Source: Octopus vulgaris
Lineage: Eukaryota
Assembly: GCA_951406725.2 (NCBI GenBank)
Contig: OX597817.1
Span: forward strand, 83,328,001 to 83,392,000
Direction of reading: 5' to 3'
Length of the DNA: 64,000 nucleotides
The notes beneath the pieces are model-generated. The model saw only the letters and a program-made list of their open reading frames with translations, made no database searches and was not told the DNA's origin. Positions 8,590 through 61,585 of this stretch are shown here, piece after piece (positions within the stretch are counted from its first letter, which is position 1; each line of letters starts with the position of its first letter). Position numbers and translations under genes: made by a program.

Positions 8590-9746
8590 TTTTTATCACA
8601 AGTTTTATTGGAACTTCTGGAGTCTTGCATGCGTGGCGGGATTGCTACCTGCAGCATACGGCACCATGCTGTCCGCTCTTTTCAGCTATCTCATACTTTC
8701 CTGATTAATCTGACCGTGCCTAGCCGGCAAAACTTTTCTAACAGTTCTACTGGGCACTGTATTCCAATTTACTTGATATGCCCCTTGATACCCTCTGATA
8801 CTGTCCCCAACGACCCAACAATAATTGGCACTATCTTCACCTTCATTTACCATAGCCTGGCTATTTCGTACTTAAGTGGGTTGTATATATCTACTTTCTC
8901 GCCTTCCTTCTTGACTATTCGTGGGTCAAAGGGGCACACAACATCAACTATATAGCACATGTGGTGCATCTTGTCGACCAACACTAGGTTCGGTTTGTTA
9001 TGCTCTAGCACCTGATCTGTTTGGATTGGAAAATCCCAGAGGATTTTGCTAGTCTCCGATTCCGCCACTCTCTGCGGTGTGTTCTCTCTCTAGCACCCAC
9101 GTTTTGCACAGTTTCCAATGTAGCGCTTTCGCTACCTGATCATGTCGTCACAGCTTTTAGTGGTTTAGGGCAAGTTTAGGTCATTCGTTTGTGATTTAGG
9201 CAATGGTTTCATCCAAATGGTTTCGTCTGCGGAGACACTTGCTCATTCCAAAGTTTGACCCTCCAGTTCGTGGCCAAAGCTTGGTCTTGCACTGTCAGTA
9301 TAGTGCTCTCGGTCACTTCAGGATTCCAGCGCCATATCGAACTACTGCGAGGGCGTATGAGTTTATTGCCGAAATTATGTTTCTGGCATTCAGCTTTGAA
9401 GCCAGTATTTTTCTCACTTGCCACAGGTAATCTCTTTTTGTCTTTGTCTTGATGTCGTTGTGTTTAATTCCATACTTCAAGTATTCTCAGGTATTTATAG
9501 TTGGACTGAGGTTGAATTAACTTCATCATCTCAAATTATGCATTCTGTCATGACAAGCTTTCCTCGTCTCATCATCATCGTAGCACGTGTTGAGAACTCA
9601 AACACCATCTCAGTATCATTGGGAAAATCCGCAGAAACTGAACTAGGCTGTCCACTTCTGCCTCAGGTTTTGTGAATAACTTCAAAGCCGTCCATGAATA
9701 GTAAGTAGTTCAGTTTTCCTTACCTCTTCCCTAGTTATACCCCAAC

Positions 9747-9750
<4 letters not shown>
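8590..9750 (-). mobile_element. R4/Dong-type RLE LINE, 3' fragment
   Basis: ILWDFPIQTDQVLEHNKPNLVLVD..IVDVVCPFD..EKVDIYNPLKYEIARLW (PD-(D/E)xK restriction-like endonuclease); TESTILTVQDQALATNW upstream. Confidence 0.85.
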
Positions 9751-9789
<39 letters not shown>

Positions 9790-9792
<3 letters not shown>

Positions 9793-10300
9793 GGTAGTCT
9801 TATTTTTGTCGCGTGTTTTCAATGCACTACCTGGCGCAGCTCTGTGTGCCTTGGATAGTGCTGTGGTTTGCTATGGTACTCTTACTTTCACTGTATTGAA
9901 AGTGTTTTACGTTGGATGTGTACGGTGCCTAGTTGTGCTATTTTCTGCATTTTACATATACTTGTTAATCCTGTTATATATTTGTCTGAATGTTTGTTTA
10001 TCATACCTAATGCGCCTACTATTATAGGAATTGTTTCTGTTTTTAAGCTCTCCATTCGAATTACTTCTATTTCCAGATATTTGTATTTTGAAATTTTCTC
10101 CATTTCTTTTAGAGAAGCCTTGTTATCTGTCGGTATTTGATACATCGATTAGAAAGCATTTTTTCTTGGTGATCTCTGACAACTATATTCAGCCTATTGG
10201 CCTTAATTTCTCTATCTGTGTATATTGGCATATCCCAGAGTATGGTTGCTTTCTCGTTTTCTGTGACCTTTTCTGGCGTGTGCCAATACCATCTTTTTTT
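9790..10300 (-). mobile_element. R4/Dong-type LINE, 3' end fragment with (TAA)n tail
   Basis: KEMEKISKYKYLEIEVIRM..TIPIIVGALG..QKIAQLGTVHI; followed on the minus strand by (TAA)n at 9751-9791. Confidence 0.85.
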
Positions 10301-10689
10301 GTCAGTATGACCAGGCTAAATGATATTTAAGGTTGTCCCAAAAGTTCGTAGAAAGTCTTGGAAAATAATGGTCTTTATTTTGAGGAATAATTTTTGTTGT
10401 TTTTGTTAGTACTTGGCGAATAAAAATTCTATTTTCGCAAGTGTTTACGAACTTTTGGGACAACCTAATAATATATGCAGCCGCTTCTGTGGCCAAAGAA
10501 GAAGCTGCATACTCTAAACAGGAGTATTACAACCAAAACAATCCTTTGGATGAATAACATCCAGACAAAATAGAAAATAAGAGAAAAGATTTGTCAATCC
10601 TTAATGAAACTAGTAGAAAATCAACACCACTAAACGACACGTAAAGTTCCAGAGGAGAGAGATGTGATCATTTTCAAGCACTGGAGGTG

Positions 10690-11425
10690 GTTTGTGTTCC
10701 CATCAGTTTTTATTATGGAGCAGGTTCAAGTTTTGCAAATTACCCAGTACTGCACTGCTCTATCATGCCTGTTGAGATACTCTGTAAGCGGAAGACGACT
10801 GTACATGGAGACAGCTTGAGCAATGGTTTCATTTTGTTGTTTACATACACGACATGTTGGGCTATTTTCGTTATTTAATATGTTGGGATGGAAGTTCCTT
10901 GTAGATGGGCATTGATCTTGGGCTGCTATGATAAACCGTTCTGTTTCTGATTTTAAGCCAGAAGATATTAACCATTGATGGGTAAGGGCTTTGTCAACAT
11001 CGGCATTATTAGCTCTCTTTGGGTATTTGCCTTTGGGAGGTTGTTCTTGCTATTCGTCAGTAAGAATATATAAAGCAGCAGTTTTAGCACGGGTTTTCAT
11101 GTGCTTAGCTTTTTCTGCTTGTTTCTACTACGTCTAATTTCAGAATTTGTTGTTTATATCACTTAGATATACCTTTGCCTGTTTTGTTACTGAGTAGATG
11201 CTTTCTTGCTTTCGTGCTTTGAGACAAGTTTTAGCATCCAGTCATCAGAGTTTATCAGGTAGGTGTCTTGGCCAATTGTGGCAATCTTCATTGTTAATTC
11301 AAGTTGTAAGAATCTAAGGCCACCTTCTTATCTAGGTAAAGTAGTTCTATAACAGCTTTAGGATGGTGCATTCTATGCATTGTCAACAATTTTCGTATTT
11401 TTCTGTCAAGATTACATTCTTCAGC
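10690..11425 (-). mobile_element. R4/Dong-type LINE, post-RT/CCHC fragment
   Basis: LDRKIRKLLTMHRMHHPKA..LYL; downstream LKSETERFIIAAQDQ motif on the minus strand. Confidence 0.75.
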
Positions 11426-11483
<58 letters not shown>

Positions 11484-13200
11484 GCCATGACTAAGTTACT
11501 TTTCCTCCTCTTGCAGTCAATAGGTACAGTTTTGTCTACGAGAAGTTGATGCTTGGTACCTCTACACTTACGCTTGCGACCTTTCTGTTCCTGTGGCAGG
11601 ACTCCATTTTTTCCATATGTCCGTACATTGACTCTGCGACCATTCCAGTCAGTAATTTCCACATAAGTGGCAAGCAGGATATCGGCCTGTAATTGTCTAC
11701 CGTATTGCCTTTTTTTAATGTTTTTCAAGCACAGCATTATCCTAACCATCGTCAACCACTCTGGTGCTACGTGGTCGGCTTGTAATTGTGCAGCTATTCA
11801 TGCATGACATTCACCAAATCTTTTGATTCAGTAGCCTTGAACTCCATCTGGTCCCGGGGCCTTCCAGTTGCTCAGATTTTAGCTGATTTCTTTCACTTCC
11901 CTAACTGAAATGACTAGTTCTACTTATTTTAGACATACTACTGCTTGTTTCAGTTCTTGCAACCATCCTCCTTGTGCTCCTTGTCTTTGCTCAGATGTCA
12001 CCTCAAACCTTCGACTTTCATAGTTATCTGGTATCAACTTTTCATCTGTACACTCTCCATTTATTCTTTGCAGAATCTCTCCTGATCTACTGTGAATGAC
12101 CTATTCTGCTGGTATCCTTTCATTCTTTGTTCATATTTTAACATTTTTGCTTTCTTTACAACGAGGCGCTGTTTGAGTTCCTCTATTACCACTTTCATGC
12201 CCTTTCTTTCAATATCATACTTTCTGTTCAGTGCACTGTATTTTTGCTCGCATTTAAGTACCCCTTCTCTTTTCGGTCTAACACATAAATGTCCATTAAG
12301 AGCATATCTAACCCCGCCTGTATTTCTCTTTTCCACCATGTATCTTTTCTTTTGTCACTCACATTATAACTCCTTACCTTGACATCAATACTCACATTTT
12401 CTTCTAAAGCAATACTTGCTGCGTTGATCAAATTGTTTCTGTGATGTTTTTTGTTCTGATGTATTTCAGAATTTCATTGACACTTTTCGTTTCTTGGTTC
12501 AATTCCCGCCGATCAACCTTTTAAAGATTGTAAATAATGTCACTATAGTCCTTTTGTAGCTTTACTTTTTTCTGTCGTAGATTACCTTTTGCCCATCTGT
12601 CATGTCACCATTAGTTTTATTGTCTTCTTCCAAACCATCTATATGTCTCTCATCGAGCAAGCTATCACTGTTCCTTTCCTGTGGTGTATCATAGATTTCC
12701 CCTCTGTTTTCTGCTATGAGACTACTTTTATCAGTAGGAACTGTATTTTCATTGTTTCCTCTGCTGCTGTTTTCCAATACCCGTCTTTTGATAGCTTCGA
12801 GAGCTTTACTTCTGTGAACAAACGAGTTTTTCTAATTGCTCTAGCTTGATCACATAATCCCTATTCCACGAGATGAAACAATAATCTCCGTTGATCATAC
12901 ATACCCTGTCGGTATCCCCTAAGATGAACACCATTTTCGTCTACGGGGTTGCTCAGGTAGTAACACTCCATGACCACAGCATTGACTTGTTTGTTCCATC
13001 TCTGCCGTATGTGCTGGTCTCTTGCTGGATAACGACAGGCTGGAGTCGGACCAGTATCTCTGAGCCGGCTGGGTACAAACACTGTTACCATCAAAGGCTT
13101 CGGTTTCATTACCACCGTTATTCACAATGGTTAGTTTTTTCATTGTCACTCATTTGAGGTAGCGATTATCAGGTTGCGCAATTACCAGTGTTTTTATTGT
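11484..13200 (-). mobile_element. R4/Dong-type LINE, 5' half (N-terminus to start of RT)
   Basis: RQRWNKQVNAVVMECYYLSNP..RGYRQGM; IEELKQRL..KYEQR..YQQNRSF; [25 protein letters not shown], then cut by (TAA)n. Confidence 0.85.
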
Positions 13201-17799: not shown

Positions 17800-18647
17800 C
17801 GACATGGGAACTGGCAGAGAAAAAGGAATGCTCCCACACTGCTATAGAGAAACATCTTTACTCGATGGAAAAGGTTCAGAAGTATGGAGCATGGGTTCCG
17901 CATGCTTTAAGTTACAACAACAAAAATCAACGAGCCACAATCTCCGCTGGTTTGCTTGCTCGTCACTGCTCAACTCATGGACACAAGCAACGATTTGTTT
18001 ACCGAATCGTTACTGGCGACGAAAAATGCTGACTGTACATCAATATGAAGCAGCGTACGAATGGCTAAGTCCCGGTAAACAAGCGACACCGCGCGTGAAA
18101 TAAGATCTTCATCCGCATAAAACGATGTTACGCGTATGGTAGGACTAGGAGGGGATTATCCATTACGAATTGTTTGAACGGAACCAAGCGGTCAACGCAT
18201 AACTCTATGTTCAACAGATGGAACGATTCAACACGGCTATTCAGGAGAAAAGACTTAACCGGCAGCATGGAGTTCTGCTGCACGACAACGCCCGTCCTCA
18301 TATCGCCAATTTGACAAAGGGAGCCATGGCTGGGAAGTGCTGCCGCGCCCGCCGTACTCTCCTGATTTGGAACTAACGGATTTCCACCTCTTTCGATCTC
18401 TTTCAAATGCTATCTGCGGAGTTTCGTTCAATACTGATGCAGAATTGAGGGCTTGGTTGGATCAAATTTTTGAATCGAAATCGGGTGACTTCTACCAACG
18501 AGGTATTAAAAATCTTGTTGAACGTTGGGAAGAGGTTGTTAACAACAAAAGTGAATACATTATTGATTAATTAGTTGTTATTTTTTACTAAAACTTTTTA
18601 AAAATTTAAATTAAAAAAAAACGGTGGGAACTTAGTTGCCAACCCAA
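17800..18647 (+). mobile_element. mariner (DD34D) transposase pseudogene, 3' part plus right TIR
   Basis: GAWVPHAL, RIVTGDEK, HDNARPH, PPYSPDL..DFHLF motifs; right TIR ...cttagttgccaacccaa followed by TA at 18648-49. Confidence 0.93.
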
Positions 18648-24256: not shown

Positions 24257-25042
24257 TACGTCTCTCACTTCCTCTCCCTTTCAGTTCCTCTACTCCTTTG
24301 CTATTCAGGTTACTTTAACAAACAAAAAAAACACAGTAGTTAGGTAAGAAAATACTCCTACTGTATTAATATTTATATAGTTATATAGTTATGTACGTAT
24401 GCGCAAATATATAATTAGATAAGCATTTTAGGTTTAGCGAGTGTCAGTGGTGAACTGGGGATGACGTTACTTTGCATACACTTGTAATGTGTCATAAGTT
24501 ATGTTCTGCAAGTTAAATGTGTGTGTGTGTGTCTAAATTTGTAGCATAAGATATTGATTCAGAAAATTGGTGGTAATCACAGAATGTTCCTCCTACCGAT
24601 TCGACTAACAGTCCACATAGTAATCCAATACAGATAAGTGTAATGTAGAGTGACCTTGCATCTAATATCCAGAGGATCCGATCTTTCAAATTATGTCACG
24701 AGGAGTACATCTGACGTAAAATGTCCGGAGGTATGTGAGATAAATATATTTATTTAACCACTTGAAATCCACAGGATTACAGCCGTTCCGAAGCCTTCTT
24801 AATTATTATACACTGAAATTATTACTACATGAAAAGGGGTGAGAAACGGGATATAATAATAAGGATGCGAAGTGTTTAACTTAATATACTTATCTCTCAT
24901 ACCTCCTCGATATTTATGGTATATATATTTGTGTGCGTACATATACATATATATACACGTACACACATACATACCCGTGCGTATGTGTGTGAGTGTATGT
25001 GTGTGTGTCTGTGTGTGTGTGTGTGTGTTACAACAAAATTTT

Positions 25043-25111
25043 ATATAGAGTTACCCAAGGTTTCGCACCCACAAAGCTAAAGCCTTGTGGATAGCTCGTC
25101 AGACTCTATAT
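25043..25111 (-). ncRNA. Type I hammerhead ribozyme (HHR1), canonical core
   Basis: Minus strand: AUAUAGAGU-CUGACGA-[GCUAUCCACAAGGC UUUA GCUUUGUGGGUGC]-GAAA-CCUUGG-GUA^-ACUCUAUAU; perfect 9-bp stem I, long stem II, short stem III. Confidence 0.9.
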
Positions 25112-25211
25112 GAATACAAAATTTTAAAATATCTACATTGCAGACGTGAGGAAACGCTCAGAACTCGAGGAATACGAAAAAACCTTAATATGTACGGATT
25201 ATTTCCCTTTA

Positions 25212-25256
<45 letters not shown>

Positions 25257-25753
25257 CATACATGTATGTGTGTGTGTGTGTGTATGTCTCGTGATTGAGT
25301 ATGACCAGTTCCTAAACTCGAAGGCCATGCAAACGTTCCAAAAGTCTAAGAAATTCCTCTGCAGGATTTTACTTTGAATGTATAATATATTGCTCTGTAC
25401 TTGAATCTACTTTTCAGCAGTATCTGCTATTAAACTAGTGGCACAACAGAGGCGGAGGCGACCAGAAACGAACTGTACTTCAGATTTCTTCTATACGGTT
25501 TACCGTCTCAGAGAGAGGAGTTCTAACGAGAAACAGTGTTTTTTCACTGTCATTAGTTCACATGCTAGTAACCCTATAGGTGGGACCTTAACAGGTGCTT
25601 CTCCTACAGGTCAGAATAGATATTGAAACTATTCTGGCTAATAGATGTTCCATACTCCTTAACATCCTGGAAGACTTGTACCAGTAAACCACTACCGGAT
25701 GCAGTTTAAAGTCATACTGAGGTATATATATATATATATATATATACATACAC

Positions 25754-25799
<46 letters not shown>

Positions 25800-25914
25800 G
25801 CATACACATGCATATATATATATATACATGCACATATGTATACTTATATATATATTCTTACACATGCATATATATACAGATGTATACACATGCGTATATA
25901 TATATACATGTAAG

Positions 25915-26800
25915 AGACCAACGTGTATGTACGCCGCTATGTATTATATATAAAAAGTGCAAAAATGGGACAAGAACGCAAAACATCCATACATATGTGA
26001 TGGAAAAATAGTATAACAAAACGTCCAGACAGACGAGTCATTCGGAGTTCTCTATCCACATTCGAGTTCCAGATTATCTTTGCAATTATACTCGAAATTG
26101 CTCCAATCTGGCCAGCCCCAGGGAAAAACTAAGCTAAGAGCATTAGGTTCCTTGGAAGAAAGCAGCGAATGTATAAGAAAACAAGGACGAAAAAAAAAAC
26201 AGAGAAATGTTACAAATACAAATGCAATTAACAGGACATAACAACAGGTGTCTTTCGATTAAAGACAAATTAAATTAAGCTGGCGTGTGTGGTAGTAAAT
26301 CCTTACGGCAGGGACATACGATTTAACAGGCACAGGGAGGAATATAGATGTTGCGCGGATGGTAGTCTAACTAAGAAAGAAAGGTAAGGCCTGGCCGAAC
26401 ACCGGTCACAAGGGGAGAGAAGAGAGAGAGGTAGAGGCAGAGGGAGAGAAGAATTAAGTAGGGGCGAGAAAAAATGAAAGCGGCACAGTGAAGTAAAATA
26501 GGAGGTAAAGTAAGCATGAAGAGAAGGCCAGGAAATGTGAGAGAGGGGGAACGAAAGAACGAAGAGTGGAATGAACCAAGTGTGAAAGGGCTGATAGAAA
26601 GAAGGAAAGAATGAAAGAATGAATGAAATAATGAAAGAATGAAATAATGAAAGGATAATAGAGTCTTACAAAATATATATATAAATATATACTTACATAT
26701 AACAGACCAAAGTGTACGTACGCCGCTATATATTATATATAAAAATACAAAAATTGGACAAAAACGCAAAACATCCAGACAGTGAGATGATGCAAAAAAA
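25915..26800. mobile_element. ORF-less element with ~75-bp terminal direct repeat (789-bp period), probable PLE pLTR/3' tail
   Basis: agaccaacgtgtatgtacgccgct...aacgcaaaacatcca at 25915 recurs at 26704; lies between (TA)n-rich tracts. Confidence 0.55.
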
Positions 26801-26908
26801 AGGGCGTCTCATGAAAAGAATTTTCTGATCTCGGTTACTTATATGCCTTGGAAATCGAATAACAGGCCTGTGAATCCAATGGCTGAATGAAAAACTGATG
26901 TATGTATG

Positions 26909-26999
<91 letters not shown>

Positions 27000-27287
27000 T
27001 ATAATAATAATATAAGGTGAAATTAATTAATTTGGAATAATCATCAATTTCACCAAGTAGATTTCGGCATGTATAAGCCCCATTCAAGGAAGGTTTAAGT
27101 AATACTAAGTAATTAAGGGTTTAGCAACGATTTGCCTCACCACACACCGAATTTAGAAATAGCAGTCAAAAGAGTTTTGGCTATTCTTTCTACTTAAAAG
27201 GGAGATCCCAGTAAAACATAGCACTTAAAAGGCAAACAACGCAGGCAAAAGAGAAAGAAATGACGATAATCATTCTACATTAAGTCA

Positions 27288-27378
27288 CCTACGGACGTAC
27301 GTTTCGGAATTAAGCCATAGGAAAGCATAAAAATTAAATAATTATGTCTTACCTAACTATTTTCCTCCTCAGCGTAGG
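27288..27378 (-). ncRNA. Type I hammerhead ribozyme (HHR2, inverted copy)
   Basis: Reverse complement of the 27922-28012 motif; core CUGAGGA/GAAA/GUC intact. Confidence 0.85.
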
Positions 27379-27921
27379 ACTCTACAATTATGAATAATTG
27401 CGTCTCAATCATTAATAATTGTGTATTAAATTTGAAGGCACTAGAAGACATCACCTCAACTCATGGTATCAGAGTGCTATGGTTTTACTGGGATCTCCCT
27501 TCTAAGTAGAAAGAATAGCCAAAACTCTTTTGACTGCTATTTCTAAATTCGGTGTGTGGTGAGGCAAATCGTTGCTTAACCCTTAATTACTTAGTATTAC
27601 TTAAACCTTCCTTGAATGGGGCTTTTACATGCCGAAATCTACTTGGTGAAATTGATGATTATTCCAAATTAATTAATTTCACCCTATATTATTATTGATA
27701 ACTATATTTCATCCCAGTAAAAAACCTGTAGCATCTTATTTTGGCAGCACGCTGACGGAAGGGGGATGGTGACATACTTTCATTCACCCTTTGAATTTGA
27801 TGGTACTGGTAATGGCTTATGCTCGTTCTGATACCATGAGTTGAGGTGTTGTCTTCTAGTGCCTTCAAATTTAATACACAATTATTAATGATTGAGACGC
27901 AATTATTCATAATTGTAGAGT

Positions 27922-28012
27922 CCTACGCTGAGGAGGAAAATAGTTAGGTAAGACATACTTATTCAATTTTTATGCTTTCCTATGGCTTAATTCCGAAACG
28001 TACGTCCGTAGG
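27922..28012 (+). ncRNA. Type I hammerhead ribozyme (HHR2), canonical core
   Basis: CCUACG-CUGAGGA-GGAA(52-nt imperfect hairpin)UUCC-GAAA-CGUAC-GUC^-CGUAGG; palindromic stem III ACGUACGU. Confidence 0.88.
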
Positions 28013-28199
28013 TGACTTAATGTAGAATGATTATCGTCATTTCTTTCTCTTTTGCCTGCGTTGTTTGCCTTTTAAGTGCTATGGTTTTACTGGGATCTCC
28101 CTTTTAAGTAGAAAGAATAGCCAAAACTCTTTTGACTGGTATTTCTAAATTCGGTGTGTAGTGAGGCAAATCGTTGCTAAACCCTTAATTACTTAGTAT

Positions 28200-28266
<67 letters not shown>

Positions 28267-28330
28267 TTAGAGACAAAACCACTATTTTGCAAATCAAACA
28301 ATACATAAAAAATTTTAATATAAAGTAAAT

Positions 28331-28384
28331 AAATCGCCACTACAATTGTTTCCTGTCTTCAAATGACATTCAACAGGTGGATTT
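28331..28384 (-). ncRNA. Hammerhead-like motif (HHR3, inverted copy), variant core
   Basis: Mirror image of 28436-28489. Confidence 0.6.
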
Positions 28385-28435
28385 CATATCTTCTATTCAA
28401 TTTTAAAGTTACTTTAAAATTGAATAGAAGATATG

Positions 28436-28489
28436 AAATCCACCTGTTGAATGTCATTTGAAGACAGGAAACAATTGTAGTGGCGATTT
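28436..28489 (+). ncRNA. Hammerhead-like motif (HHR3), variant core CUGUUGA
   Basis: CCAC-CUGUUGA-aUGUC(auuugaa)GACAg-GAAA-CAAUU-GUA^-GUGG; palindromic stem III ACAAUUGU; A6U and an A-G mismatch at the base of stem II. Confidence 0.62.
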
Positions 28490-28656
28490 ATTTACTTTAT
28501 ATTAAAATTTTTTATGTATTGATTAAGTCTTTCCTTGTTTGATTTGCAAAATAGTGGTTTTGTCTCTAATAATATTATATAATATTTTACTATAAAATTG
28601 GATTCAATCCTAAATCTGATTTTTCCCTGTAAATTTGGATTTATTCCCTAATATTT

Positions 28657-28711
<55 letters not shown>

Positions 28712-33059: not shown

Positions 33060-34110
33060 TACAATTCTAGATTATACGGTTCCGTTCATTCAGAAAATTG
33101 GTGATTGGCTAATAGAAAAAAATTCCGCGATGCATAGATCGCATTTGTTGTTGTAACCATTATACGGTTTGGCATGGGTGACTATAGGCCATTTTAAATT
33201 ATATAGAATTGAGTTTTGTTTTAGGTTATGAGTTAGCCAAGATAAAGAAGTGCTGTTTTTTCTTGCTTGAGATTTGAAGAATAGTGGTTACCAACTCTGA
33301 CATTGGAGATAGTGCTGCACGAGCTGATGTATACATAGTTGGAATTATCAGTTGATACTGTACATTTGTATATTATATTTTTGTGAGGCATCTATTATCT
33401 AAAGGGCAGGAGGTGGGATGCCTACAGATGCATAGTATTCTAGAAGGTGCTAGAGTAGATTTTACGGGGTTATGATTATCTAGGTAAACCTAGTGTTATT
33501 CATTAACCGCCGCGGCGTTAGAATTGGTATTTTTCAGGGTGGTGAGAGAATTGTCTAGCGGATGTAGCTTAAAATAGTTCTCGTAAATAACGGTATTATT
33601 TCAATCCTTGCCTATTTCAGTGATGAGTTTAGCGGGGTTGTAAAGTGGGGTAAGAGTATTGGGAGGAGTAATAAAAATAGGGTTGGTGGTGTGAGGTTCG
33701 GTATTGATAAGGAGGTTTAAGAACGTATTATGCAGATGTCAGACTGTACCGGAAATTTTAGTTGCGGTGGAGTAGGAAAATTTTATCGATTGCAGATTGA
33801 AGATTTTTCTAAGAGAAGTAGACTTAGGGAAATATTATTCAAATAGCGCAAAGAAGAGCTTGGGTACTCTGGTCTGAACATTAAGGACAAAGGTGGGGTG
33901 AAACCAGATAACGTCGTGCGTCATGGTCCGCTTATTCAGGTTTACGGGGTTACCAGGGTATAAGCTTGGGGTACAGAAATGCGTGCTGGATTTCGATGGA
34001 CAGCTGCAGATTTGGTATCCGAAATCACATGATGGGAGGAGTGCCTATTAGGTTTGCTCCTCCAGTAAAATTTTGGGGGATAGGAGGAAGTTGGGATAAG
34101 GGGGATAGTT
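33060..34110 (-). mobile_element. Penelope-like element, linker plus GIY-YIG endonuclease relic
   Basis: Minus strand: DVIWFHPTFVLNVQTRVPKLFF..YFPKSTSLRKIFNLQSIKFSYST, then IIYKCTV..YVYISSCST..RVGNHYSS..LKWPIVTHAKPYNGYNNKCDLCIAE. Confidence 0.85.
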
Positions 34111-34229
34111 CATGTTTTATTCCTTCGTTGTAGGGCGCCGTTGTAATATTCAGCGTATTGCTCGAATATTTCTTTACTGGCAGATAGGGATGAGATCCTA
34201 TAAGAGATCTCCAATATGTGTGTGTGTGT

Positions 34230-57160: not shown

Positions 57161-58538
57161 TTATTTACATTATTTATATTTGACGAAATCGAAATCTTGA
57201 GGTTAGTAGCTCGTGCTCTTAACCACTACGCCATATGCCTGTGGGCAATTATGGAGTGAATTTTAGGGCTCATAAATCTACTATTTTCCTATCCTTCCTT
57301 AATTCCGGTTCCCATATGCTACTCATATCTGCACTTGGTCTATTTAGGCGGTTATTGTCCCCTAACATATGTGCTGCTTCTTTTAGTTTTTCGTCTTTTC
57401 CAGTGGTGTTCTTTACCTATTATTTTAACTTCATCCCACTGGGGGAGGTGGTCTCCATTTCCCATACATGGTCAGCTATAAACGATTCATCAATATCTCC
57501 TCCTGTCGCTGCTTTGCGATGTTCGTCTACCCTTATTTTGAGGGGGCGGCATGTTTCGCCTTTGTATAACCTACCACAGATACATCGAATGGAGTACACG
57601 CAGTCTTTGGTCATATTCTCTTCTATTGGTGGTTTTACTCGAAGGAGATATTTGCGTTGTGTTACTCTTCAATACTGTCCTTATGTCATATCGGCCGCAT
57701 ATCTTTTGTATCTTTTCGGAGAGGCCTTTCACAAAAGGTAGACAGACTGTGGACGGTTTATTGTTTTCATCCTCTCTTTTCTTCATAATTGGAGTGAATA
57801 GCATGTTCTCGGGGTAGATATAACTTATTAGATTGTAACTTAGCTTGCTCACTTCTTCGTGGTGGGTATCTTATATTCATTGCTCGATGTTTTAGCCACT
57901 GAGCAATCCCTCTCTTTACACTGCATGGATGGTGGGAGTTGAAGTTGAGGTATCGTCCAGTGAAGGTTGACTTGCGGTATACGGATGTTCTGAATCCATA
58001 CCTGGTATGTATTTTAATGCGTCCAGGTATGCTAGCTGATTGCCATTTTCCTTTTCCCTTGTGAACTGTATGGATGGCTTTATTGAGTTCACATGATCTA
58101 ACAGCACTTGGACATCTTCCTGGTGAGGCCAGAGTATAAAGATGTCATCAACATATCGCAGTCATAGGGTTGGTTTTAGTGGTGTTGATTCTAAAGTCAA
58201 ATTCTCAAAGTATTCCATGTATATATTGGCTATTATCGGCAGTAATGGCGAACCCATAGCTAAACCCTCTTCTTGTCCATATATATCAGTGTCCATACTG
58301 AAGTAGGTATTTTCTACACAGAAGGTCAACATTTCCATCAAATGTCTTATTGATATACTAGTGCGTTCTTTTAGATGCGTGTCTGTCACTAGTTTTTCAT
58401 GAATCACCGATAGTGCTTCATCAGTTGGGACTTTGGTGAACAGACTTATCACATCTAGACTCACCATTTAGTTGGATTCAATGGGGGTATCCTTGATCAA
58501 TTCTGTGAAGTGGGTGGAAGTCTACACGTACGATGCTA
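57161..58538 (-). mobile_element. Penelope-like element (Poseidon-like RT plus GIY-YIG), 5'-truncated pseudogene
   Basis: MVSLDVISLFTKVP..EGLAMGSPL..IANIYME..RYVDDIF..IQFTREKE; CVYSIRCICGRLYKGETCRPLKIRVDEH; flanked by atgttcatg at 57150 and 58539. Confidence 0.92.
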
Positions 58539-58539
58539 A

Positions 58540-61105
58540 TGTTCATGACATTTATCGATATGGTCAAATCCTATCTTTCTACATAGCTCCCAGTGGATTT
58601 CTATCCCTAGGCTGTTATGTCTTCACTTGTATTCTTTTTGTGTCAGCGTGCTACATTCAATTACTATATGAGTAACACTTTCCTCTTTTGATTTGCATAA
58701 TCTGCATTGCGAATCTACTTGATTTTTGTCTATCTTGGCTTTTATCCAATTAGTCCTCAATGCTTGATCTTGTGCTGCAGCTAACAAACTTACTGTCTCC
58801 TTTTCAGCCACCCTTTCTGCAAATATAATCATGTCTCGCTACAACTATTTTCTGCAACTATCTTTGGGAATCTACCATGCAAAGCCTTCTCCTGGCAGTC
58901 AGATCACCATTGTTCTTTTTTCTGATTTTTAACTTGGTTTTTGTTTTTTTGGTTTTCCTAAATTTTGCTGTGACTCTAGCAGCTCTTAATAAACTTTCTT
59001 CACTATTACCTACATAGGATCCTATATCTACTCTAGCTAACTCCACGCAGTCTTCTACGGATATTAGCCCTCTTCCTTTCTAAGTAAGTATAATCTTGAT
59101 ACTCTCCCCTTGTATGGAGTTCTCCATTCATATTGAATTCCTTCCTAGTTCTGTCTAGCTTTGCTAAGTTAGTTTTTGTTCAATCAACAAAGTAAAGTTA
59201 TTGCCCAAGTATTTACAGCCTTCACAAGATTTGGCGCATTTAGCATTACATTTCATTAGCTTCCTCACCCTACCGATATACTCCTCAATTTTCGTTTTCA
59301 GTTCTATAGTTGGTACTCTTGTCAGATTCTAATACTCCTAGATACTTATAACTCTCTTCTTCCGTTAATGATTTTAATGTCTGACTATCTGGTAATTGGC
59401 TGTCTTCACTGTTCCCTTCTCATGACTAACATTACACACTTATCTATATGAAATTCCATGCCTATCTCTTTTTCATTCTTACTAAAAAGCTTCAGATCAT
59501 TCATGTAGAGCAAATGGTTACTTTTCAGTAACTATTTCCAAACTGATACCAGGCATTTGCCTTCCTTGATACTAAACCGTGCGAGATTAAACATAGGACA
59601 AATATGAAAGGAGATAACAAGTCTCAAATTCCTCTTGATGTTATCCACCCCTAAGACTGTGTCACCTGAGTAGAGATCTACTTTCCATTTCTTCATGCTA
59701 AAGCTAATTAATCATCTTATGTTGTCTAATATACTGAGTATACTCAAACATTCACTTAGCCATGAGTGTGGGATCATATAGCTTTTTTGTAATCTATCCA
59801 TGCTATTTAAAACGTTTTTCTTTTACTTCATTTAAAACTGCTTTGTACTTTCCTCTAGGCTTCTTTTTGCAACCTTTCTGTTCTGGTAGTAAATTCAGGC
59901 TGTCAAGATACCCGTAAATGCTTTCTCGGAGCATTCCTATTAACAGCTTCTACACTAATGGTAAGCAAGTGATCGGTCTATAATCGCTAGCTGTATTGCC
60001 CTTGCTATTATCTTTCATAAGGAATATTGTTTTCTCTCTCATCATCCAGTCTGGTATTATTCCTCCATTCAGGCAATCCTGAAGTTGTTGCCTCAGTCTC
60101 CCATGTAAACGACTAACTTTCTTTATCCAGTACCCTTGAAATAAATCTGGTCCTGGGCCCTTCCAATTCCGCATTTTATCTAACACTTTACTCACTAATG
60201 CGAGTGACTCTTAGCCCTGGATGCTTCTCACTCACTAATTCTTCCCTCACTTTGTTTAACTATACTGCATCTCCATTATGTTTGACTGACTTATCCCAAA
60301 TATTACTCCAGAACTTCCTAGCTTCTTCTGCATTAGGCATCTAATCTTCCCTATTTCTTATTTATTTGGTTATAAAATCTCCTGTGGTCTATCTCTGATA
60401 ATCTATTTTGTTGATACTGATATATTCTTTTCTGATATCTGGAGCGCTTGCCTGCTGCTTTTATGGTACGCTGTTTCAACTCTTCTATGATTCTCCCAAA
60501 GCATTTCTCTTTGACTAAGTATCTTTTCTCAATAGAAGATTTAAACCTTGTGTTACCTAACGTATTCAGTTTCCAGGCTACTATTCTACTTAGATCTTGA
60601 CTTACAGTTTTCCCTTTATTTTGTGGTCTCCTTTTCCACATTTGCTCTTTTCTAATCTTTTCTTGTGGAATATCTAATCTTCTAGTAGCTACTACCCTTC
60701 CTGTATAGATTAATAAGTTAGTGTCTCCTTTATTTTTAGTATCTATCCTACTGATAACAGAATCTACTTTCCTAGTCATATCTAGCAGCTTCTTTCTGTT
60801 GGTGCCTTTTAATGCTGGCAATGTTGTTTTTTACTTTACTCATTACCTACCGCAACTCATCAAAACTTTCCTGACTTAAATCACTTAACACGTTGGTGCC
60901 AGTTGTCCCTTCCCTATTGGTATTACTATTATTAGTTTCCCAGTTCTCTTTTAATCTCTTCCACCTCCAGTTCTGTCATCTACTTTCTTCTCTTAATAGC
61001 ATTAGCTTGATCTACTTGTCTCTGCTCAGCCACTTTAAAGATACCTTTCTCTACCCAAAGTATGAACATCCGTTTTCTATAGCCCCTTATTTTAGGATCA
61101 CTTTG
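58540..61105 (-). mobile_element. R4/Dong-type LINE, near-full-length decayed ORF
   Basis: IRGYRKRMFILW, IIEELKQR..YQQNRL, NWKGPGPDLFQGYWIK..YRPITCL, HLLYMNDLKL, AAQDQALRTNW..CRLCK..ESVTHIVIEC. Confidence 0.92.
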
Positions 61106-61253
61106 TAAGTAGCACTGCATCACTGAGTGAACTGGAGCAACGTGAAATGAAGTGTTTTGCTCAAGAACACAACGCGTCACTCGGTCTGGGAATCGAAACC
61201 ACAATATTACGATCATGGTACTGACATCCTAACCACTAAGCCACGCGCCTCCA
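61106..61253 (-). mobile_element. tRNA-derived SINE head (family C-like), 3'-truncated
   Basis: Minus strand: gtggaggcgcgtggcttagtggttagg..ggtttcgattcccagaccg..gttcttgagcaaaacact. Confidence 0.8.
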
Positions 61254-61585
61254 CCTTCATTTTCCATAGCCGGGCTATTTCGTACTTAAGTGGGTTGTAT
61301 TTAATTATATTTTCGCTTTCCTTCTCAACTATTCCTCAGTCAAAGGAGTAAGCAACATCAACTATATAGCAAATATGGTGCATCTTATCTACCACCACTA
61401 GGTCCAGTCTGTTATGCTCAAGCACCTGATCTGTTTGGATTGGGAAATCCCAGTGGACTTTGCTAGTCTCCGACTCCGCCATTCTCTGCGGTTTGTGCTC
61501 ATACTATGTCTTGCCTCTCTCTGGCCCCCACTTTTCGCACATTTTCCAATGTAGCACTTTCTCTACCTGCTCGTGTCGCATGTTT
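61254..61585 (-). mobile_element. R4/Dong-type endonuclease fragment, same family as 8840-9150
   Basis: ccatagccgggctatttcgtacttaagtgggttgtat..acatcaactatatagca..cacctgatctgtttggattgg shared with the 8.8-9.1 kb copy. Confidence 0.85.

Follow-up and report, generated by a model that had tools for sequence, protein, structure and literature searches.

The stretch analysed here, referred to as the window, is 64,000 nucleotides of the Octopus vulgaris genome (GenBank assembly GCA_951406725.2, contig OX597817.1, positions 83,328,001 to 83,392,000 of the forward strand; positions below are those of the window). Within a few kilobases it holds three repeats, A, B and C, that carry type I hammerhead ribozyme motifs and lie in dinucleotide microsatellites. 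A previous reading of the letters alone (the sequence-only reading) had described this span as a hotspot of ribozymes in three unrelated non-coding elements. Here we relate the repeats to Penelope-like elements (PLEs), the retroelements whose reverse transcriptase (RT) is joined to a GIY-YIG endonuclease, and ask how they came to be inserted.

Five hammerhead motifs in three insertions

A descriptor of the type I hammerhead (core CUGANGA...GAAA...UH plus stems I to III) was run over the full window and returned exactly five matches, all inside 25043-28483 and none elsewhere, and it returned no motif in 40 dinucleotide shuffles at each of four stringencies. These are the same five motifs that the sequence-only reading had claimed in 3.5 kb. 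The last two are real but their ends changed, as the spans first given for them (28331-28384 and 28436-28489) include a bulged extension of stem I. The motifs are as follows.

25043..25111, minus strand: hammerhead A, with a 9-bp stem I, canonical core, long stem II and near-palindromic stem III (descriptor)
27288..27378, minus strand: hammerhead B of the inverted arm, with canonical core and palindromic stem III (descriptor)
27922..28012, plus strand: hammerhead B of the direct arm, with canonical core (descriptor and folding)
28337-28380, minus strand: hammerhead C of the inverted arm, with A6U at 28373 (descriptor)
28440-28483, plus strand: hammerhead C of the direct arm, with A6U at 28447 (descriptor)

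The core expected of a type I hammerhead is present in A and in both B motifs, and cleavage is predicted between 25052 and 25051 in A and between 28006 and 28007 in the direct arm of B. The hammerhead fold of A has −25.4 kcal/mol, within 1.2 kcal/mol of the minimum free energy (MFE) of −26.6 kcal/mol, with a z score of −4.0. Stem-loop II of hammerhead B is unusually long (60 nt). In B and C, stem III is a perfect palindrome that is predicted to pair with a second copy, and in B it could form an 8-bp self-duplex, the dimer form. Both C motifs in the window depart from the canonical core, with U in place of A at core position 6. The identity of A6 is important for hammerhead rate, for which a literature search gave no confirmation. 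The substitution is private to the two window arms among the 100 family-C matches listed for an exact 33-nt pattern (127 matches in all), the other 98 listed having the canonical A6, and it was presumably present in the template or copied from one arm to the other.

Self-comparison reduced the five motifs to three insertions: A stands alone, B and C are each an inverted pair, and B has a partial direct tandem besides. The arms are 98.4% identical over 377 bp in B and 90% over 353 bp in C. The sequence-only reading was right that there are three distinct carriers, and within B and C the two motifs lie in the two arms of one insertion each. The insertions and the tracts between them, in which ORF stands for open reading frame, UTR for untranslated region and family E for a PLE family described below, are:

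25028..25214, minus strand: element A, what is left of an older Hydra-type PLE after 5′ truncation, namely its 3′ end (3′ UTR, hammerhead and first 3′ end); (TA)n lies on one side and (TG)n on the other
26901..27014, unstranded: (TA)n tract at the 3′ end of the B inverted arm
26992..27473, minus strand: element B inverted arm, 5′-truncated, ending at the second (tail) 3′ end
27473..28203, plus strand: element B direct arm, which comprises 1.2 copies of the ORF-less 602-bp unit in tandem and stops at the first 3′ end
28203..28264, unstranded: (TA)n tract common to B and C
28250..28405, minus strand: element C inverted arm, carrying the hammerhead at 28337-28380
28415..28660, plus strand: element C direct arm, a short derivative of the family E terminal repeat, with the hammerhead at 28440-28483 and the tail to the second 3′ end

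As a whole, B spans 26992-28203 and C 28250-28660. None of the three carriers has a local ORF and each touches (TA)n or (TG)n, so the description of the carriers as ORF-less and bounded by microsatellite is true locally, but A and C stem from elements that have ORFs. A fourth TA-bounded repeat, with a 113-bp direct repeat, lies within the same span (25895-26880, minus strand); its copies of ∼80% identity (1552 candidates) show inverted arms and two 3′ ends, as PLE ends do, and the 14 loci inspected yielded neither a hammerhead nor an ORF.

Parents of A and C, and the closed unit B

A search with A gave 43 matches from 418 candidates (40 scored) at 82-93% identity. At 21 of 30 loci the sequence upstream of the copy encodes, on the same strand, a GIY-YIG C-terminus with CxxC..E and CxH, and one locus has long RT matches as well; the ORF of A was seen as fragments only. 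Of such a PLE, the window retains the final 187 bp. Only 6 of 30 family copies, the window copy among them, have kept an intact core: the A family is old and decaying. For C, 79 distinct copies were collected (57 of a short form, which begins ∼20-45 nt before the hammerhead, and 20 of a long form). Two long copies contain PLE ORF fragments, and a search with one of these fragments led to family E, with open frames of up to 862 aa. In 7 of 11 fetched family E loci, the 237 bp directly upstream of an ORF of 838-852 aa are ∼90% identical to C, hammerhead and tail included, and C is therefore a short derivative of the family E terminal repeat. A and C are thus not the independent non-coding elements first supposed. 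The sequence-only reading had allowed that every copy might be an ordinary pseudo-long-terminal repeat of a catalogued PLE, at the expense of novelty; this applies to A and C, which derive from ORF-bearing Hydra-type PLEs, and not to B.

Two long C-family copies (L197:2927-4948 and L201) have a GT-rich 3′ region of 2.2 kb, and fragments of the family E ORF that are scrambled and lie in both orientations but are still open. At another inverted C pair (L032/L033 junction, C25:38.9 Mb), the element 5′ end is represented at the centre by several short pieces that were copied again, and it looks as though RT had restarted there repeatedly. When the 5′ extension of one C locus was used as a query, the locus itself was the sole match.

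The 602 bp of the B unit run from the hammerhead through the first 3′ end, a tail of ∼105 bp and the second 3′ end to a short inner stretch, after which the hammerhead follows again. A first look gave 1866 candidates, of which 40 were scored, and the 22-nt hammerhead pattern has 88 exact matches genome-wide. Of 38 distinct copies, 33 retain an intact core, and 8 share a compensatory change of G-C to A-U in stem II, which is one subfamily event in a setting where young families vary little. Copies are dispersed as 0.3-1.8 units, with no long arrays among the 88 matches. Two complete cores in direct tandem, 588-602 bp apart, occur at five loci (among 69 distinct loci plus the diverged L179); these lie elsewhere in the genome, and the window locus has the inverted pair only. 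No Hydra-type ORF match was found on the same strand within 1.2 kb upstream in any of 82 distinct B copies or 30 copies of a sister family, G. The closed unit of G is 589 bp, has its own hammerhead and is ∼62% identical to B over the unit (2586 first-look candidates; L264-L293). A second sister, H, closes at 555 bp, also with its own hammerhead (L260, L263, L249); two of the four matches to a short-loop version of the B hammerhead belong to it, and none of the four has an ORF. The self-pairing of these units is strong relative to shuffles, at z −4.7 to −6.0 for B and −4.7 to −6.6 for B, G and H together, against −2.3 to +0.9 for five random and two ORF controls, −2.7 for the E repeat and −1.5 for a junction of family D (below). 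Together with a GC content of 36% (below 45%), this is the composition known from retrozymes, and for B the retrozyme-like reading given earlier holds, with a closed ORF-less unit and two-core tandems.

A long-range helix is predicted in B (window 27473-27760) and in G (L284:1916-2219), in which RNA after the hammerhead pairs with RNA beyond the second 3′ end and so brackets the tail; covariation is thin (5 of 81 pairs, nine sequences), and a similar bracket is predicted in E. Two loci were considered as a parent of B, a tandem beside a GIY-YIG fragment at C4:31.2 Mb and L167 beside an ORF of a further family, F, and both were rejected because a (TA)n tract separates the unit from its coding neighbour.

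Candidate enzymes, insertion footprint and rival readings

Intact enzymes exist outside the window. Family D is very young, with ORFs of 717 aa that encode RT and, at the C-terminus, GIY-YIG in an element of ∼2.5 kb, and its endonuclease is 100% identical in 150 of 150 scored matches. Family E has intact ORFs of 838-852 aa, likewise with RT and C-terminal GIY-YIG (L244:2206-4719 and other loci). D shows RWK, DKT, CxCX5C, CxxC..E and CxH, and E shows all of these with KWK. In addition, these elements have a hammerhead in the terminal repeat, (TA)n targets, and tandem, inverted and tail structures as described for the Hydra clade. By their motifs, D and E, and with them the parents of A and C, would belong to that clade. 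Pfam and NCBIfam assigned no family to the intact ORFs. The D hammerhead has C at core position 4 and a variable position 7 (L223:2239-4389, L217, L095-L124); the E ORF is very AT-rich with an asparagine-rich insert, and the distance from its end to the next hammerhead is ∼3.2 kb, in a unit of ∼6 kb.

Two relics in the window had been proposed as traces of the mobiliser (at 33.1 and 57.2 kb).

33111..34217, minus strand: Hydra-type PLE ORF relic from RT thumb to GIY-YIG, with stops and frameshifts (tblastn, 31-40% identity to family D, E = 5e-7)
57767..58467, minus strand: remnant of a broken RT from a different lineage (Pfam RVT_1 at E = 0.002, which is below cut-off)

The second has no tblastn match from D, E or F proteins. 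Both are broken, and neither can be the mobiliser; the more general proposal, that a PLE RT/GIY-YIG protein did the work, is likely, with intact young ORFs elsewhere in the genome. Other parts of the window have what we take to be further mobile-element fragments, RT-like at ∼10.7-11.8 kb and 60.4 kb and the end of a mariner-like transposase at 18.3 kb (window 8835-13000, 60351-61578 and 18259-18570).

The junctions suggest how such an enzyme would have acted. Copies of A, B, C and D have two preferred 3′ ends, each followed by TA-rich microsatellite. This was seen at the first and second end, respectively, in 48/49 and 33/43 cases for B (of 129), 38/39 and 43/44 for C (of 94), 17/17 and 16/17 for D (of 37), and more weakly, 7/16 and 6/10, for the old A (of 35), which bears out the (TA)n targeting first noted at this locus. 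Moreover, in a sample of B copies that was selected solely on sequence downstream of the predicted cut, 29 of 30 (27 loci) extend upstream beyond it, suggesting that the template was uncut or re-ligated. Divergence in B is 1.9% between inverted arms within a locus (33 pairs), 3.1% between direct arms (22 pairs) and 5.3% between loci, and the arms of one locus have rare variants in common 15-20 times more often than different loci do. We infer that the arms of a locus come from one template lineage.

A, B and C are three separate insertions into TA-type microsatellite, and it is likely that all were made by an RT/GIY-YIG protein of Hydra-clade PLEs, each with the hammerhead of its own terminal repeat. 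In the mechanism that we propose, the endonuclease would nick (TA)n, and RT would initiate internally on the RNA, at either of two sites separated by 60-110 nt, the stretch between them being the tail. RT would then read through the hammerhead site on an uncut or re-ligated template, and an early stop or fold-back would account for truncated copies, partial tandems and inverted arms. The likely role of the hammerheads is to cleave precursor RNA, with two copies acting as a dimer via the palindromic stem III, and cutting is probably dispensable for each insertion; the A6U substitution in both inserted C arms fits the in vitro finding, cited below, that hammerhead mutants insert. A is the end of an old family with ORFs, C comes from a family whose ORFs are intact, and B is likely copied in trans.

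Several observations weigh against this reading. The Rfam search that had been suggested as a check gave no hammerhead up to E = 10 over 24900-28700 (88 matches), a wider search gave none among the 150 listed of 177 matches, and the microRNA matches of Rfam here are microsatellites and the C palindrome; hence the hammerhead call depends on the structure descriptor and not on Rfam. The hammerhead fold of C lies 4.7 kcal/mol above the MFE. The clade assignment of D and E is by motifs, the unit of E (∼6 kb) exceeds the '<3 kb' given for the clade (Craig et al. 2021, PMC8557442), into which D would fit, and family F has a Hydra-like ORF of 899 aa without the CxCX5C linker (L255:2147-4843). At the DNA level B resembles neither the terminal regions of D or E nor the fetched F loci, and octopus also has other TA-targeting PLEs (Naiad), so that for B the Hydra-clade enzymes are candidate mobilisers. 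Furthermore, eight of nine predicted retrozymes failed to cleave in vitro in a recent preprint (10.64898/2026.07.22.740005).

Could the locus instead be a special, selected cluster of ribozymes, regulatory or co-opted? All three hammerhead insertions of the window fall within 3.5 kb, and the chance that a given insertion has two more within that distance is only ∼0.4%. This has to be set against the density in the genome (2.80 Gb in 227 contigs). Forty arbitrary 10-kb stretches (400 kb) contained 13 motifs in 11 insertions, one of them doubtful, and three shuffles contained none. The resulting 2.75 insertions per 100 kb (95% interval 1.4-4.9) correspond to ∼77,000 genome-wide (38,000-138,000), three or more insertions in a 64-kb window have P = 0.26, and ∼330 clusters as tight as this one (43-1800) are expected by chance. 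The flanks of 217 PLE loci have 22 non-self motifs in 743 kb, or 3.0 per 100 kb, which is close to the arbitrary sample and speaks against general clustering. The C hammerhead has a core mutation, and B and C are young dispersed repeats on one shared (TA)n target. A selected cluster is therefore very improbable; what had been called a hotspot falls in the tail of a distribution that has a very high density across the genome, and the tight cluster needs no special cause beyond shared (TA)n targets. Hammerheads of at least a dozen other families, whose palindromic stem III sequences differ, also occurred in the arbitrary DNA and the flanks (L324-L363 and others).

For B, two other accounts have to be considered. 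That B is the 5′-truncated end of an autonomous PLE that escaped sampling, as A and C proved to be such ends, draws on the fact that only best-scoring or exact-match copies were looked at; but the unit closes on itself with its tail running straight into the next unit, no Hydra ORF match lies upstream in the B and G copies, and the sisters G and H have the same closed unit at ∼62% identity, so we consider this account unlikely. Alternatively, B, G and H would be circular-RNA retrozymes, in which a transcript with two hammerheads is cut to a 600-nt monomer and ligated, and a PLE RT reads round the circle, a cycle already proposed by others (PMC7229834). This is compatible with insertion by a Hydra-clade enzyme and adds a circle to it. 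The two-core tandems, copies that cross unit junction and cut site unbroken and reach ∼1.8 units, tandem halves with variants in common, and the strong self-pairing all point in this direction. However, the autonomous family D makes the same partial tandems, which renders a circle unnecessary, long arrays are absent among the 88 matches, and the linear fold is self-paired just as strongly. In 6 of 7 pairs, three columns distinguished the upstream from the downstream half; on inspection, these appear to be artefacts of gap placement and end junctions. Assembled contigs from four sequencing runs, three of them presumed to be RNA, cover 25-30 of 30 bins of the B unit, with none long enough to span it, and were given no weight here. 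We hold the circle to be quite possible, on a tentative footing. The wider proposition, that B, G and H are an old, diversified lineage of such retrozymes of 555-602 nt still inserted by young intact Hydra-clade RT/endonucleases, is possible as well, but we are rather doubtful of it.

If that proposition were true, the two-ended tail, the (TA)n junctions and the read-through of the ribozyme site would directly record in the genome that a PLE enzyme had copied an RNA circle, and, given an intact enzyme and a matching 600-nt template, the proposed cycle could be rebuilt in vitro. The locus itself is ordinary for this genome, for which we estimate tens of thousands of hammerhead-bearing PLE ends. 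Nevertheless, its ORF-less units show the PLE insertion signature directly, where prior papers argue for mobilisation from co-occurrence and terminal-repeat homology (PMC7229834; 10.64898/2026.07.22.740005). Because B and its sisters share a genome with young intact PLE enzymes, they form a usable test system, in which the very young Hydra-type ORFs could serve as enzymes to compare linear with circular templates and to test the role of the ribozyme.

Comparison with known systems

PLEs of the Hydra clade are typically shorter than 3 kb and have a C-terminal GIY-YIG with RWK, DKT, CxCX5C, CxxC and CxH motifs (Craig et al. 2021, PMC8557442). The families described here resemble them in these motifs, in a canonical type I hammerhead that lies close to the 3′ end and has a palindromic stem III, in (TA)n targets, and in partial tandems, an inverted 5′-truncated copy and a tail. 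They differ in that D, E and F are young and intact, whereas the window has truncated or ORF-less pieces only. The system as such, the novelty of which the sequence-only reading had left open, is in print for octopus: the supplementary files of the same article include Hydra-1_Obim from Octopus bimaculoides, for which a hammerhead and a preference for (TA)n are given (File S1, Hydra sheet; File S2). The sequence of that hammerhead in File S2 differs, compared by eye, from those of A, B, C, D and E. A literature search turned up no published description of ORF-less hammerhead units in octopus; Repbase, Dfam and the library of PMC13282606 may hold them under other names. That annotation of O. 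vulgaris repeats reports 31 recently active PLE families, and its main text speaks of neither hammerheads nor ribozymes.

Minimal hammerheads of PLEs occur as thousands of dispersed motifs per genome, with opposite-strand pairs 100-700 bp apart, palindromic helix III, an extra base after A9 and predicted action as dimers (Cervera and de la Peña 2014, PMC4209133). The motifs of the window share these features, and nothing essential differs, the long stem-loop II of B being the unusual point. For Poseidon of Anolis (PAc), in vitro work showed that the tail corresponds to two internal start sites of RT on AT-rich targets, and that hammerhead mutants still inserted (Frangieh et al. 2024, PMC11167929). 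AT-rich target, two 3′ ends with a tail and a hammerhead dispensable for insertion are common to both systems, but PAc belongs to another clade, and what was measured in vitro there is inferred from end positions here.

Non-LTR retrozymes of animals are ORF-less tandem units with one type I hammerhead each, proposed to be PLE-derived and PLE-mobilised (Cervera and de la Peña 2020, PMC7229834; 10.64898/2026.07.22.740005), and the preprint derives animal retrozymes from PLE terminal repeats. B resembles them in being an ORF-less tandem unit with one type I hammerhead per unit, in its low GC content and in its strong self-pairing, and the five loci with two cores satisfy the two-unit requirement of the preprint. 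Its 602 nt exceed the 170-400 nt of invertebrate retrozymes but lie within the 51-972 nt of the preprint. Moreover, B is dispersed in pieces instead of arrays and directly shows the two-end tail and inverted arms of PLEs. Taken together, A and C look like elements that work as Hydra-clade PLEs do, and B looks like one that works as a non-LTR retrozyme.

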